Made by a program: the position numbers and the translations under genes. The notes beneath the pieces were generated by a model, which had not been told where the DNA came from, made no database searches, and saw only the letters and a list, made by a program, of their open reading frames with translations. From NCBI GenBank assembly GCA_964016885.1, contig OZ024742.1, positions 89,714,001-89,778,000 of the forward strand: a stretch of DNA of 64,000 bases. Reading direction: 5' to 3'. Below are positions 11,917-30,215 of this stretch, in pieces (positions within the stretch are counted from its first letter, which is position 1; the number at the start of each line of letters is the position of its first letter). The stretch is from Eledone cirrhosa (Eukaryota).

Positions 11917-14900
11917 TCTATATATATAAATCTGAGGATGTGTGTGTTAAGGTTTGTAACGGATTCCCGTCCACAACTTCCGACGGATTCTATTCAAAGT
12001 CAGGACAATTATTGCTTTTGGTCAGGAAAAGGTCATGAAGCAAAAAGAAATTTAAATCCATCAACAATAAGGGCAAAAATCGAACATGATCATTCCCCCT
12101 CGCTATAATTTAACTGTTTTACTCACTCTCTCTCTCTGTCGCTCTTCACTCCCTAAATGACAACACTGCAGAGAGAGAAACAATGTGTATGATCAAATGG
12201 AGCGTTTCGTATATTCTCTCTCTCTATAATTTAACTGCTTTACTCTCTCTGTCGCTCTTTACTCCCTATAGGACAACACTGCGGTGAAGCATTCCGTATT
12301 GAGCGTTCCGTATTGACATACGGCTTATATGGTGCATTATATAAATCGAAATGTAACCCGTGAAATTTTTCCTAGGCAAAATTATTCGAACAGACATGAC
12401 CTTATTGCCAGAGTGTTCAGACTGAAACTGGCTAAACTCATGGCTTTTATCAAAAAGGGTCAGGTACTTGGGGCTGTAAAATGTGACATGTTCACCGTCG
12501 AATGGCAAAAGCGAGGGCTGCCACATGCTTACATTTTGATTTGGTTAGCTGATAAAATCAAATCAAATGCCATATACAGCTTTATTTCGGCTGAAATCCC
12601 TAACCCTGCAACTGACCAGGAATTACATGATATCAGCAAAGCTAACATTGTCCGTGTGCCTCGGGTCCTAATGAGCATCACACGTGTCTGAAAGAGGGCT
12701 CGTGCAGTAAGGGATACCCAAAAAAATGTGTTGACCAGACTCAGACTGTTGGCGACAGGTACCCCCTGTACAGGCCCGAGACGGCCTGAGAACGATGGCT
12801 TCACCACAACAGTAAAGGCAGGTCAAGTCGACAATAGATGGGTGGTCCCTTACTGCTCGCTTCTCTTGAAGATGTTCAACGCCCACATCAACGTTGAGAT
12901 TTGAAACTCCGCCAAGTCGATAAAATACATATGCAAATATGTAAATAAGGGCTCTGATGCCGCAATGTTCGCATTTCAAGCTGAAAATAGCAGGGATGAG
13001 GTTACAGAATACCTGGCGGGGCGGTACATCAGTAGCAAAGAAGCTTTATGGCGCCTATTTGGTTTATCCCTACACCAACGGCACCCCGCCATCGTACAGC
13101 TTGCGGTACATTTGGAAAATGGGCAAAGGGTGTACTTTACGGACCAAACCGCCGCCAAGTTGGCTGCCGATGCGAAAGAGACCATTCTGACGGGTTTCTT
13201 CAAACTTTGCCAGTTCGATGCATTTTCGCAAACAATTGTGTACCCCCAGGTTCTATCCTACTTTATATGGCCGAAAAACACTTGAGTGCGAAGAAAGTCA
13301 GGTCAGGCTGTTGAAAGACATCCTGGTGTAAAATTTGACAGCTGTCTTGGAAGGGTTTACACTGTGTCCCCAAGTCAGCATGAGTGCTTTCATCTCCGCC
13401 TTCTTCTGCATGAAATTGTAGGCCCACAAAGTTTTCAGGACCTTTGATGAAGAAATATGTGATACGTACCGGGAAGCCTGCTTTAAGCGTGGTCTTTTGG
13501 AAGGTGATTCGCAATGGGATTCCACTTTAGCATAGGGTGCTTTGTTGAAATCAACTAAAAGTCTACGAGAACTCTTTGCCATTTTGCTTCAAAAGTGTGA
13601 ATTGGGTGATCCCAAATCTTTCTGGGTCAAGTACAGAGACTTCATGTCTGAGGACTTCCTGCGCCTGGCTCATCTGCAGTATCCTTCAGTGGAAGTTGGT
13701 TGCAGCGACATTATCTACAACAAGGCACTCATTGATATCGAGGACGCCCTCCTCGACATTGTAGGGAACGAATTGGCGACGTATGGTTTGCTGTCAACCA
13801 TCAGAGAGGACGCTAACACGTTGGCTCCGGATTTGTTGCGAGAAACAGCATATGACATCGATTCTCTTTCCCAATACTTAGAGGAAAATGAGTCTAAACT
13901 TCTGTCGGACCAAAGGTTGGCTTATTTAACTATCATTGACGCGGTTCAAAATGAGACTGGGGGTATTTACTATCTCGATGCTCCTGGGGGTAATGGAAAA
14001 ATCTTGGGAACAAAATTGATTCTCGCTAAGATTCGTTAGGAGAAAAAAATTGCGTTGGCCGTTGCATCATCCTGGATCGCTTCTACTTTGCTGCCGGGAG
14101 GCAGGACAGCACACTCAACCTTAAACTCCCCTTGGATTTAGTAAAAACTGAGACACCAACATACAATATCAGCAAGAGTTCACACGAAGCTCTGGTTCTC
14201 AAAAAATGTTACCTCATTGTTTGGGATGAGTGCAAAATGGCACACAAGGGTGCGCTTGAGGCATTGGACAGGACTCTGAAAGACATTAGGGATTCTACGG
14301 CTCCTATGGGTGGCGTAACCCTTCTGCTATCAGTGGATTTTCGGCAAACGCTGCCTGTCATCCCCAAAGGGACAAGAACTGATGAAGTGCGTGACTGCCT
14401 TAGGTTGACCGTGTTTGGCCCCAGGTGAAGAGTCTGTAGCTGAGCACAAATGTGAGTGCTCATTTGCATGGTGACAACATGTCTGCAGCATTTTCTAACA
14501 TTTTAACATTTGGTGAGGGCAATGTTCCTGCGGATGACAAGGGCGGCATAGCAATCGACTCTCTGTGCAACATTGTGAGCATCCCTTCTGACCTTTGGGA
14601 AGCAGTTTTTCCTAATATCTTTAATAACTTTAAAAACTTCGATTGGCTCAGCGAAAGAGCCATCCTTGCTCCGAAAAATCCCATGGTTAATTTTATTAAC
14701 GAGCAGCTGATTAAGAAGATTCCCGGTAAAGAGCACATCTTCAAATCTATCGACCTGACGTCAGACCCCGTCGATATCGTTAATTATCCGGTTGAGTTAT
14801 TAAATTCCCTTGAGCCCCCAGTGCTCCCACCTCACATTCTGAAGCTTAGGGTTGGCTGTCCCATTATGCTAATAAGGAACATGCGTCCACCAAAGCAGTG

Positions 14901-15513
14901 CAACGGTACTCGCATGGTCGTCAAGTCACTGACGCCTCAATTGGTTGAGGCCACCATTGTAACGAGGTGCGGGAGAGGGGAGAATGTTCTCATTCCAAGG
15001 ATGAACCTTTTCCCCTCGGCGTCAGATATCACGTTCTATTTCCGGCGAATCCAATTCCCGGTGAGACCATGTTTTGCCAAGTCACAAGGGCAAACATTGT
15101 CGGTGGCGGGCATCCATTTGGGAGAACCATGCTTCGCCCATGGCCAAATTTATGTTGCCTATTCTCGCGTAGGGAGCAGGAATGGACATTTTGCTTACAC
15201 TCCTCAAGGGATGACACCCAATATCGTCTACAAATAGGTGCTATAGATGTTGATGCAAGTGTTGGAGGTGTTGGAGCAATGCCGTCTAGAAAACTATTTC
15301 CTGGTAGGGTCACCCTTGCTAAATTCGGTATTGGAAGATTATTAACCCATCATTGATTGTCCAAAATGCTAATTGGTTCGTAACTTTTAATAACCGGTTC
15401 AACTGCTTTATGTACTTAATTGATAAGCTTATTCGCTTTCAAGCAACGTTTACCTGGATGTAACTTTTCATAGAAAATGAACAAACCTGAGCAAGGCCGG
15501 GCTAAACTGCAAC
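11917..15513 (+). mobile_element. Helitron, internally deleted and decayed
   Basis: 5' TCTATATATATAAA start; 3' GC-rich hairpin cctgagcaaggccggg followed by a degenerate CTAG; RepHel inside. Confidence 0.85.
12329..15237 (+). pseudogene. Helitron Rep/PIF1-helicase (RepHel) with many stops and frameshifts
   Basis: VEWQKRGLPHAYILIWL (HUH motif), DNRWVVPY, KYICKYVNKG, GRYISSKEA, LDAPGGNGK (Walker A), IVWDE, DFRQTLPV, ERAILAP, CNGTR, QFPVRPCFA, KSQGQTL, HGQIYVA. Confidence 0.95.
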
Positions 15514-19589: not shown

Positions 19590-20379
19590 ATTGGACAAAT
19601 CCCCCAAACATTTTCCACCAAACCACAGATAACACCATATATTTAACAAATATACTGTTGAATTCTCATACTCTACATCAAGCAATCTCAAACAAAAAAT
19701 AAGCAACTACAACATTTATAAACTTTAAAATAATATGACTACACCACCGCAGCATAAAAAGTCAAATAATACAATCCTTCAACCTAGAAAACACAACCAC
19801 CCAAATCACCAACACAAAAACAACAGAACACAAAATCACAATACAACCCGAACACCAAACCACTCACAAAGCAACCTTCATTCTCCTGCTATCATTAATT
19901 ACAATAGAAATAGCTCAAGGATTAAGGAGAATAATATATGCACCCCTAATAACCATCTTACGTATAGCTGTAATTGCAGAATTAGAAGCATTTGCCCTTA
20001 AATGGAAACTGTTTGAGTGATAATGTAAGATATAAATGCACTGTGTCTACTACAGACTCCAACAAAACATATATAGGATCTACATGAAACACATTTATGA
20101 AAAGATTTTACGCACACTCTAGTAAAACTAGCTAACACCACATCTTTAGCTGAAGCGGTAAATAATTATAAAAAGAAAAAAATAGATTTCAAGTTATCGT
20201 GGAACACCAATCTACAAAGAACTCCATATCTTGGGAACAGGAGGGAATGCAGATTATGTTCAGGGGAGATCTTGGAAATTACTAAATCTAAGGACGATTT
20301 ATTAAATAAAAGACAGGAATTGATCATAGTTTGTAATCACCGTATACGAAAAACATTTAAATACTATAAACCTAATTAA
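19590..20379 (+). pseudogene. Naiad-like PLE linker and GIY-YIG endonuclease, frameshifted
   Basis: CNCRIRSICP/NGNCL...VRYKCTV...KTYIGST*NTFMKRFYAH.../TSLA...W...PY...CRLCSGE...LLNKRQELIIVCNHR. Confidence 0.85.
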
Positions 20380-20943: not shown

Positions 20944-21765
20944 TTCGTTCCCGAAAGGTCTATTTTCTAAGCGCTCATATATTCACCTAGCTTATGCTAA
21001 CAGAATAACTATGTAGCTTGTTCCCTTCCTTTTACGGTTAGCCCTCCTCTTTGTTGTTATCTTGTCTCACTCGCTTTACGCGTTTTAATTGTCCTAATAA
21101 CTTAATTTAGTTATTATTGCACCGACGTGAGGTATATGATTTTTAATGCAATGAAATATCTATGATCGTCGGCAAATCACTGATGAGGGACTCATTTTAT
21201 TACATGTTTTCCATGTGCAACCTGCAGTATTCTTCTCCCCATTTTTTCACATATATTTACCTAAACTGCGATTCTGTTTTTTTTCTCTCTCTCTCTCTTA
21301 CTGCTCCCTCGTTCTCTCTGTTTCTCCTACTTTCTTTCGCCCCCTCTGTCATGTCAGTTAACTCTTCCTCACACTTCCACTCACTCACTCACTGTTTCTC
21401 CTCTTCTCACTTCACCCCGTTCGCGACGAAAACATTTTCTCTCTTTCTCACATTTGGATTCGTTCCCGAAAGGTCTTTTTTCTAAGCGCTCATATATTCA
21501 CCTAGCTTATGCTAACAGAATAACTATGTAGCTTGTTCCCTTCCTTTTACGGTTAGCTCTCCTCTTCGTTGTTATCTTGTCTCACTCGCTTTACGCGTTT
21601 TAATTGTCCTAATAACTTAATTTAGTTATTATTGCACCGACGAGAGGTATATGATTTTTAATGCAATGAAATATCTATGATCGTCGGCAAATCACTGATG
21701 AGGGACTCATTTTATTACATGTTATCCATGTGCAACCTGCAGTATTCTTCTTCCCATTTTTTCAC

Positions 21766-21770
<5 letters not shown>
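20944..21770 (+). mobile_element. Tandem pLTR-like repeat (family G), 515-bp period, each copy with a kink-turn hairpin; homolog at about 28130-28645
   Basis: 20944-21258 is repeated at 21458-21770 with a CT-rich spacer; flanked by (TA)n. Confidence 0.8.
21122..21172 (+). ncRNA. 51-nt kink-turn hairpin (copies at 21637-21687 and 28521-28571)
   Basis: ccgacg t GA ggtat ... atatc TAT GA t cgtcgg: NC stem, tandem G.A/A.G pairs, 3-nt bulge, C stem. Confidence 0.65.
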
Positions 21771-27705: not shown

Positions 27706-28129
27706 GAGTTATACAGGCCCCTCAGACAATACCCACAAAGAGAAAACGGGCGTGCAGAGTTTGTCAAGGAGACATTCTTTGCTCTCGTGCTCGCGGGTGC
27801 GTTGAAAGGCGATTAAGTAAGTGCGTGTGTAGCATGACCGCGTAGGATTGCCTGATTTGGGGTCTCTGAATGTGTGTATTGGATGTACGGGTGTACTTGC
27901 GTGCGTGTGGGCTGTTAGCTTCGTGTATGGGGTGGGCCTAATTTTCGTGATACTGTGTTTGTGCATCCATCATTGGCTGAATACTAACATAGCAACATCG
28001 TTACTAAGAAGAATACATAGAGGTATGTACCACACCTAAGCAGAACGCGTATGCACGTAGTGCTGTCACCCCATAACCCGCCCCCACCGCCCGCCCCGCG
28101 TCAGAAAGCATACAAAATAACCATTTTTC

Positions 28130-28641
28130 ATATATTTGTAATTTTTCCTCTGCTGCGACCTGTCTGTTTCTTTCTTACTGCTTGCCCTTTCTCTCACCTT
28201 CTTTTTGCACACTCTGCCAGTCACTCTCTCTCAGCTGGCCCCTTCCTCACACTTTCACTCACTCATTCTCTGCTTCTCCCCCTCTTTCACTTCCTCCCGT
28301 TTGACCTGTGTGAAATCCTTTTCTCGCTAACATCTCACCCAGGTCGGATGGTTTGTATCGCTCGTCTATGATTTAACCAAGCTTAAGCTTATAAGATTTC
28401 ACGGACTTGTCTCCTCTCTTCTTATCTTTGCGTTGCCATACCATCTATGTTTGTTTACATGTCTCGCTCGTTTCACCCTATTTTACGTGACCCAATAACT
28501 TTCTTTAGTTATTGCTCACACCAACCAGAGGTATATGATCTTTAAAGCGATGAAATACCAATGAAGGTTGGGAGATCACTGATGAAGGATTAATTTTATT
28601 CATATGTAACCCATGTGTAACCACGCAGCACTCTATTTTTC

Positions 28642-28645
<4 letters not shown>
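28130..28645 (+). mobile_element. Diverged family G copy: CT-rich tract plus kink-turn module
   Basis: Shares tgtctcrctcg, the aataact...agttatt hairpin, ggtatatgat, atcactgatga and catgtgyaacc with 20944-21770. Confidence 0.7.

Positions 28646-28711: not shown

Positions 28712-30215
<1,504 letters not shown>

Follow-up and report, generated by a model that had tools for sequence, protein, structure and literature searches.

A predicted split-core hammerhead ribozyme of S-G-C order at the 3' end of a (TA)n-inserted non-coding retroelement in Eledone cirrhosa

The closest described relatives of the motif studied here are hammerhead ribozymes of type SGC. They were named by Eckert and co-authors (2023, PMC10085705), who demonstrated cleavage at 0.007-0.19 per minute. 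According to the available text of that paper, type SGC was found only in metatranscriptomes, and known genomes gave no match except for one GCS candidate. CUGAnGA and the stem II strand were assumed there to be inseparable. One extra nucleotide at A9/10.1 is tolerated in a viroid hammerhead, as the available text of PMC3705267 states; apart from this tolerance, we found no published test of a core opened at that position.

Animal retrozymes carry type I hammerheads, and their RNAs are about 170-400 nt long (Cervera and de la Pena 2020, PMC7229834; Li et al. 2026, 10.64898/2026.07.22.740005). The non-LTR retrozymes of animals were proposed in the same papers to be moved by Penelope-like elements. 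Naiads, a Penelope-like group, target (TA)n and show partial tandems, 5' truncation and inversion (Craig et al. 2021, PMC8557442). In the available parts of that paper they are reported to lack canonical hammerheads, unexplained 'cores' or 'half cores' are noted in some of them, and some carry SECIS elements.

We analyzed 64,000 nucleotides of the Eledone cirrhosa genome (contig OZ024742.1, positions 89,714,001 to 89,778,000, forward strand); this whole stretch is called the window below. An earlier note on the window had described the hairpin at 21122..21172 as a kink-turn (k-turn) in a repeat family and had suggested that it recruits host proteins. We conclude, with a probability of about 0.82, that the hairpin is stem III and the kinked closing helix of a predicted self-cleaving, non-circularly permuted, split-core hammerhead, which lies at the 3' end of a non-coding tandem retroelement. 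That the hairpin belongs to a permuted hammerhead had been missed.

The element resembles a type-SGC hammerhead placed in a retrozyme but lacks one defining feature of each. It shares with type SGC the S-G-C order, a short linker between stems I and II, a helix joining the other strands, and the full catalytic core. Unlike type SGC, block C is split: the 5' strand of stem II lies upstream, and two helices, P4 and P5, are inserted at A9/10.1. The joining helix runs on into stem III by way of a k-turn or a bulge, and no k-turn is mentioned in the available text of PMC10085705; also unlike the reports collected there, the motif is found in an animal genome. Like animal non-LTR retrozymes (PMC7229834; 10.64898/2026.07.22.740005), the carrier is a low-GC non-coding tandem repeat with one hammerhead per monomer. 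It differs from the retrozymes described in those papers by the monomer length of 515 nt and by a pseudoknotted split-core ribozyme, which type I descriptors would miss.

Two insertions of the carrier are present in the window:

20944..21770, + strand: family-A insertion, 827 nt, flanked by (TA)n tracts; its non-coding monomer of 515 nt is present in 1.6 tandem copies
28100..28642, + strand: family-B insertion, from a related subfamily whose ribozyme end shares about 76% identity with that of family A; the 5' limit of the insertion is approximate

The family-A insertion has a fixed 3' end and a truncated 5' end. Its monomer includes no long ORF; the longest stop-free sense frame is 112 codons. 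A search of the 3.0-Gb host genome with 21461-21770 resulted in 2,619 candidates, and the 40 that were scored have 96-100% identity; family A is young, with about 98% identity. With the family-B ribozyme copy as a query, 4,289 candidates were obtained. A pattern spanning the motif gave 5,742 matches in the host genome vs 3 for the reversed control.

Partial tandems of the family-A element span 374-1,874 nt. In a set of 26 independent insertions, obtained with a query that favoured copies with the whole 3' part, the 3' end falls at monomer position 511-515 in 25, a TA tract flanks the 3' end in 25 and the 5' end in 22, and the 5' ends vary. Such ends would be expected from target-primed reverse transcription, and due to the fixed 3' ends, variable 5' ends and TA flanks we took the + strand to be the RNA sense. 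The traits expected of a non-autonomous Naiad, i.e., (TA)n insertion, a fixed 3' end, 5' truncation and partial tandems, are all present, and the carrier is likely a Naiad-type (Penelope-like) parasite. The (TA)n targeting, partial tandems, truncation and inversion are shared with the Naiads described in the available parts of PMC8557442; the ribozyme fold likewise occurs in the 3' UTR of 7 of 49 Naiad loci that we fetched (see below) and in published consensus sequences. Unlike Naiads, the element in the window has no ORF.

Both insertions recur almost identically about 452 kb away (G000:C3:90187022-90194196). Thus the region around the window is either segmentally duplicated or doubled in the assembly.

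The ribozyme copies and the parts of the first of them are as follows (the pairings of P4 and P5 are from RNAfold):

21091..21191, + strand: whole predicted split-core S-G-C hammerhead, copy 1, 101 nt; the hairpin is its middle
21091..21094, + strand: 5' strand of P4, pairs with 21188-21191 just after CUGAUGA
21095..21116, + strand: P5 hairpin, between the 5' strands of P4 and stem II
21117..21121, + strand: 5' strand of stem II, displaced upstream, pairs with 21147-21151
21122..21127, + strand: 5' strand of P6 (formerly called the NC stem), pairs with 21167-21172
21128..21130, + strand: non-bulged strand of the k-turn (3n, G2n, A1n)
21131..21136, + strand: 3' strand of stem III, ending in U16.1 (21135) and then A17 (21136)
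21137..21142, + strand: 3' strand of stem I, pairs with 21174-21179
21147..21160, + strand: 3' strand of stem II, GAAA core (21153-21156), 5' strand of stem III
21161..21172, + strand: bulged strand of the k-turn (UAU, G1b, A2b, 3b) and 3' strand of P6
21174..21191, + strand: 5' strand of stem I, CUGAUGA core (21180-21186), 3' strand of P4
21606..21706, + strand: ribozyme copy 2, predicted cut 21651/21652
28489..28590, + strand: ribozyme copy 3, predicted cut 28535/28536

The order of the parts is P4a, P5, the 5' strand of stem II, P6a, the k-turn, stem III-U-H with the cut, the 3' strand of stem I, a short linker, stem II 3'-GAAA-stem III, the k-turn again, P6b, stem I 5'-CUGAUGA, and P4b. 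The block order Site-GAAA-CUGAUGA is the non-circular S-G-C order, and all core nucleotides of a hammerhead are present. U16.1 (21135) pairs with the last A of GAAA, and cleavage of copy 1 is predicted between 21136 and 21137. The core is split, with the 5' strand of stem II upstream and P4/P5 inserted at A9/10.1. A21116 can pair in P5 or alternatively with U21152. P6 is the counterpart of the stem I/II interaction helix of type-SGC ribozymes, as far as the latter is described in the available text of PMC10085705. Copy 2 lies 515 nt downstream of copy 1. Copy 3 has private mismatches in P4 and stem II in comparison with other family-B copies, and so may be decayed.

The earlier note had reported three 51-nt copies of the hairpin (21122-21172, 21637-21687 and 28521-28571), and all three are there with the stems, the GA/GA pairs and the 3-nt bulge as described. 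ATCACTGATGA indeed follows each of them directly; it comprises the 5' strand of stem I and the CUGAUGA core. Both hairpin stems are recovered by RNAfold, with z of -1.7, -2.0 and -3.5 for the three copies. Only two independent lineages are represented in the window, though, since copies 1 and 2 are tandem monomers with 98% identity. The letters ATGA...ATGAA, formerly read as a K-loop closing the apex, are present but not conserved in related families; they are the cleavage site and the GAAA core. As the earlier note held, the hairpin is an RNA structure that has been conserved, and the element carrying it is mobile and inserted at (TA)n.

Words such as TGA and ATGA together with a k-turn also occur in box C/D snoRNAs, U3 and SECIS elements, and some Naiads carry SECIS; a retrocopy of one of these RNAs would be an alternative source of the hairpin. 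Rfam reported nothing in the window at the gathering score, and with the limit relaxed to E<=10 there was still no match over 21091-21191; at the level of Rfam 15 models, such a retrocopy is thereby refuted. In addition, the NC helix opens outward and is not capped by an AA loop, and there is no long ORF. We consider this alternative extremely improbable; a selenoprotein role of the hairpin was rejected as well, on account of wrong geometry and the absence of an ORF. A tRNA search of the window found none.

The predicted hammerhead was assessed by covariation. A 34-pair model is 94.2% paired in 20 subfamily representatives aligned with MAFFT; 22 of the 34 pairs change on both sides, double changes occur in every helix, and all six helices covary. 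The covariation score, for a model built from the same, related sequences and with shuffle counts that are not probabilities, is 0.458 vs 0.211 in shuffled and at most 0.106 in slid controls, the slid controls being 27-49% paired. P4 (helix 1 of this alignment) is 95% paired, with double changes in two of four pairs, and P5 (helices 2-3) is 97% and 90% paired, with double changes in six of eight pairs. A canonical stem II after CUGAUGA was tried and rejected: it is only 40% paired, and the downstream bases pair as P4 instead.

A wider alignment of local copies has 93 rows (two of 95 were dropped as frame-shifted). The two double changes that had been noted in the NC stem hold up in the family at large: pair 7n.7b is A-U in 49 and G-C in 40 of the 93 copies, and pair 4n.4b is G-C in 45 and C-G in 35. 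The upstream stem II behaves similarly (pair 10.3-11.3 is C-G in 46 copies and U-A in 44), as does stem I (pair 1.5-2.5 is U-A in 48, C-G in 27 and U-G in 14). Pair 10.1-11.1 is formed in only 53% of the copies, which counts against the model.

As the rows are related and the model was derived from them, less circular tests were run. One copy was taken from each of eight families, and cognate pairing was compared with partner swaps over all permutations. Cognate pairing was better for stem I (P1, p=1e-4), stem III (P3, p=6e-4) and the upstream stem II (P2, p=3e-3); the rows had been chosen for pairing of stems I and III and not for stem II. A looser pattern without any stem requirement (GAAAC..TGA..CTGATGA) gave 720 matches vs 9 in the control and revealed further families. 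In the fetched loci it had 46 unique matches, 19 of them with at least 8 of 9 stem I and III pairs at the expected place; the same level of pairing was reached by 0 and 0 matches in two control windows.

The search patterns required CUGANGA and GAAA. They did not demand U16.1, which is U in 92 of the 93 local copies. Position 17 is A in 91 and C in two of these copies, and in all 27 intact distant copies (looser-pattern score at least 7) N17 is never G, in agreement with the NUH rule.

The distribution of genomic 5' ends lends indirect support to cutting. TA-joined 5' ends on the minus strand number 171 in a 30-nt interval at the cut vs 61 in the adjacent upstream interval, and 13 in a far interval specific to one subfamily. 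On one contig (C1), 30 of 36 loci among the matches listed begin at or 3' of the cut. The excess is spread over 0 to +15 nt and not peaked; microhomology to (TA)n or stalling of the reverse transcriptase could be behind it. Three of the 26 family-A insertions begin at TATA just before the cut site. Separately, two loci are 5' inversions of families C and D (L099 and L120), with breakpoints that coincide with the predicted cut or lie a few bases from it.

One could suppose that the fold derives from a hammerhead but no longer cuts in the short elements, serving instead as a handle by which the reverse transcriptase/endonuclease primes about 120 nt from the 3' end. The 23 of 26 insertions that start elsewhere than the cut site, the frequent mismatch of pair 10.1-11.1 and a location near the 3' end, which suits protein binding, would agree with this. 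Yet diverged families still obey the NUH rule and retain the catalytic positions, read-through is explained by circular templates, and sub-threshold twister matches in the same place of two other Naiad UTRs (E=0.04) suggest that cleavage is under selection. We regard a handle that does not cut as rather improbable, and prefer the self-cleaving ribozyme.

To look for the fold in autonomous elements, we used a stop-free fragment of a decayed Naiad from the host genome as a query. Full-length relatives obtained in this way have an N-terminal GIY-YIG-like region and a reverse transcriptase. A representative search returned 1,391 relatives. A protein search with a 117-aa fragment gave no match, none of six reverse transcriptase/endonuclease fragments was named by Pfam, and no Naiad was found in viral contigs. 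We fetched 80 Naiad-like loci from metagenome contigs; 49 of them have at least 250 nt after the ORF match. An order-blind scan of these 49 3' UTRs, which required NUH, found seven hammerheads, all of them on the sense strand and all in S-G-C order; the reverse strand and shuffles of the same UTRs gave 0.

All seven have an unbroken 6-bp upstream stem II starting next to GAAA, P4 right after CUGANGA, P5 and P6. Downstream of CUGANGA, a stem II run is 0-1 bp long in six of the seven and 4 bp (offset) in the remaining one (L230). Identity between the proteins of the seven elements is low, about 29-63% in the best tblastx segments, and an N-terminal endonuclease match is present on six of the seven contigs. 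A relaxed scan added no further hammerheads, so 42 of the 49 UTRs are without the fold, which counts against our reading. Any CUGANGA is absent from 41 of these 42, and seven of the eight UTRs with the core word hold the whole fold.

Rfam had no match at the gathering score in the 40 of 80 Naiad loci that were scanned. Below the threshold, type-P5 twister matches (E=0.04, 11 loci scanned) were seen in two Naiad 3' UTRs (L240:3076-3135 and L242:3014-3073). Three others (L246, L265 and L285) share a motif that is also found in published bivalve Naiads and has no Rfam match; it resembles a twister core. It may be that Naiads swap ribozyme classes. A sub-threshold SECIS match (L256:3318-3385, E=0.29) lies behind a Naiad ORF, which fits the reported selenoprotein Naiads.

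The published Naiad consensus sequences were inspected by eye in the available parts of the PMC8557442 supplement. The same layout was recognized in sequences from Octopus, squid, coral, box-jelly and acanthocephalan, where the fold is labelled 'HHR_core' or 'HHR_half_core' or is unlabelled. In Naiad_Obim and Naiad_Ovul the 3' end shows this layout with the k-turn included. The layout without a standard k-turn was seen in Naiad_Esco, three Acropora records, Naiad_Plae, the record preceding Naiad_Plae, and one further record in part 8 of the supplement; no fold was seen in Omin, Adux, Skow-1, Dcar and three bivalve records. Four nematode Naiad records have C-S-G order (type-CSG) with an intact block C, an order that Eckert and co-authors found in only two metagenome sequences (PMC10085705, available text).

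The earlier note had proposed to identify the autonomous partner, and the search in the host genome ended with neither an intact Naiad nor a coding partner. Two pattern matches and 60 protein matches (out of 88 candidates) included no intact Naiad, and the remnants examined are decayed, with no readable ribozyme; given the youth of family A, this counts against our reading. No sequence similarity was found between the element in the window and any Naiad 3' end in the host genome; the RNA fold that it shares is that of the fetched and published Naiad 3' UTRs. DNA searches with the most Naiad-like local motifs did not reveal a coding partner. Candidates for autonomous copies were selected by motif spacing (L031, L092-L098), but the ORFs of L092, L094 and L095 belong to unrelated nested elements, and a motif scan for a Naiad reverse transcriptase found none in these and other loci then fetched.

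In the hammerhead fold, stem III is directed away from the tops of stems I and II. Thus a sharp bend would be needed by the layout; the same distance problem was raised by Eckert and co-authors (PMC10085705, available text). We propose that P4 and P5 stack end to end and would hold A9 beside stem II in place of the covalent link, and that the k-turn would fold stem III back, bringing P6 to the tops of stems I and II.

The junction has the features of a standard k-turn in the superfamily of the window, i.e., two helices joined through a 3-nt bulge and then tandem G.A/A.G pairs, as in Kt-7, U4 and box C/D (PMC4382518, available text). Unlike those k-turns, it is part of a ribozyme scaffold, and plain bulges can take its place in sister families. 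G2n is found in 88, A1n in 91, G1b in 92 and A2b in 93 of the 93 local copies, L3 is U in 92, and 3n.3b is U.U in 47 and A.A in 36. The GA/GA pairs, formerly considered invariant, are thus near-universal in this superfamily and are also kept in the distant local families E, G and H, but the 5'-strand GA is found in only eight of the 27 intact distant copies. Families C and D have lost it, and family C closes a plain 3-nt bulge with Watson-Crick pairs. By eye, none of the seven fetched Naiad ribozymes has a standard k-turn in the stem III/P6 orientation; 5' bulges or inserted hairpins are seen instead.

What all these variants have in common is a joint between stem III and P6 that is flexible or bent. 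As the k-turn is kept in most local families and in Octopus Naiads and plain bulges occur elsewhere, it probably acts as an architectural bend and not as a universal protein site. Since GA/GA is not family-wide, recruitment of a protein would be at most lineage-specific.

K-turns can be folded by ions, tertiary contacts or a protein, and 3n=G or 3b=C favours ion-driven folding (McPhee et al. 2014, PMC4382518, available text). Neither is present in the two common 3n.3b pairs here, so folding may depend on a protein. A stronger version, close to the earlier note, would have the k-turn serve chiefly as a binding site for 15.5K/Snu13, L30 or SBP2, which it would bring to the element RNA, with a possible role in gating the ribozyme. 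This is suggested by the standard k-turn with L3=U, by 3n.3b pairs that fit neither ion-folding rule, by GA/GA in families E, G and H and the Octopus Naiad consensus sequences, and by the helper protein that Eckert and co-authors considered for SGC ribozymes (PMC10085705, available text). It is opposed by the loss in families C and D, by the bulges and inserted hairpins of the fetched Naiads, by the ability of tertiary contacts to fold k-turns (PMC4382518, available text), and by the K-loop letters being hammerhead parts. In our opinion such a primary role is unlikely.

A combined reading is that a core opened between A9 and stem II is common to Naiads across phyla and that the k-turn of this lineage folds only with a host L7Ae-family protein (15.5K). 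Its ribozyme half is highly probable and the protein switch is the uncertain half, so as a whole it is doubtful. If true, it would be a natural ribozyme switched by a host protein, which would control when the element RNA is cut or kept circular.

Returning to the self-cleaving ribozyme with an architectural bend, the life cycle could be as follows. By analogy with animal retrozymes, tandem transcripts would self-cleave into 515-nt monomers, and a host ligase would circularise them. A Penelope-like reverse transcriptase/endonuclease would then prime at (TA)n from a fixed site about 120 nt downstream of the cut and copy round the circle. Copying of a circle from a fixed priming site would explain why the 3' ends are fixed, the 5' ends vary and the tandems are partial. 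The mobilising partner could be a young Penelope-like family of the same window, which has a canonical hammerhead and might act in trans.

Outside subscription papers, we found no description of a split-core S-G-C hammerhead or of a k-turn in a Penelope-like element. Hammerhead variants 'with additional helices' are ascribed to Weinberg 2015 and Forgia 2023 in a 2026 paper (PMC13725137, available text); a term search of the available text of Forgia 2023 found no such passage. An earlier precedent for helices at A9/10.1 is therefore possible. If our main reading is true, non-circularly permuted hammerheads, so far metatranscriptomic or metagenomic, occur in animal chromosomes at thousands of copies. 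It would also give a testable answer to how Naiads thrive without canonical hammerheads: some of them carry orders that descriptors miss, namely split-core S-G-C in several phyla and, by eye in the available records, intact C-S-G in the four nematode ones. The assumption of a contiguous CUGAUGA and stem II would be broken, ribozyme censuses would miss a class, and the motif would provide a natural example of a ribozyme scaffold that incorporates a k-turn.

The neighbourhood of the insertions is rich in other elements. A second tandem repeat, with a spacing of about 527 nt, contains a canonical type I hammerhead at 29435-29516 (+), the stem II of which is long. Related copies of this ordinary, retrozyme-like repeat are found near 21.83-22.56 kb and 28.93-29.68 kb and adjoin both insertions. 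Motifs similar to type I hammerheads are located at 29971 (-) and 16546 (-). Fragments in several frames at 12317-15237 (+) resemble a Helitron Rep/PIF1 helicase, and a decayed C-terminal GIY-YIG remnant of another Penelope-like family is present at 19990-20379 (+).
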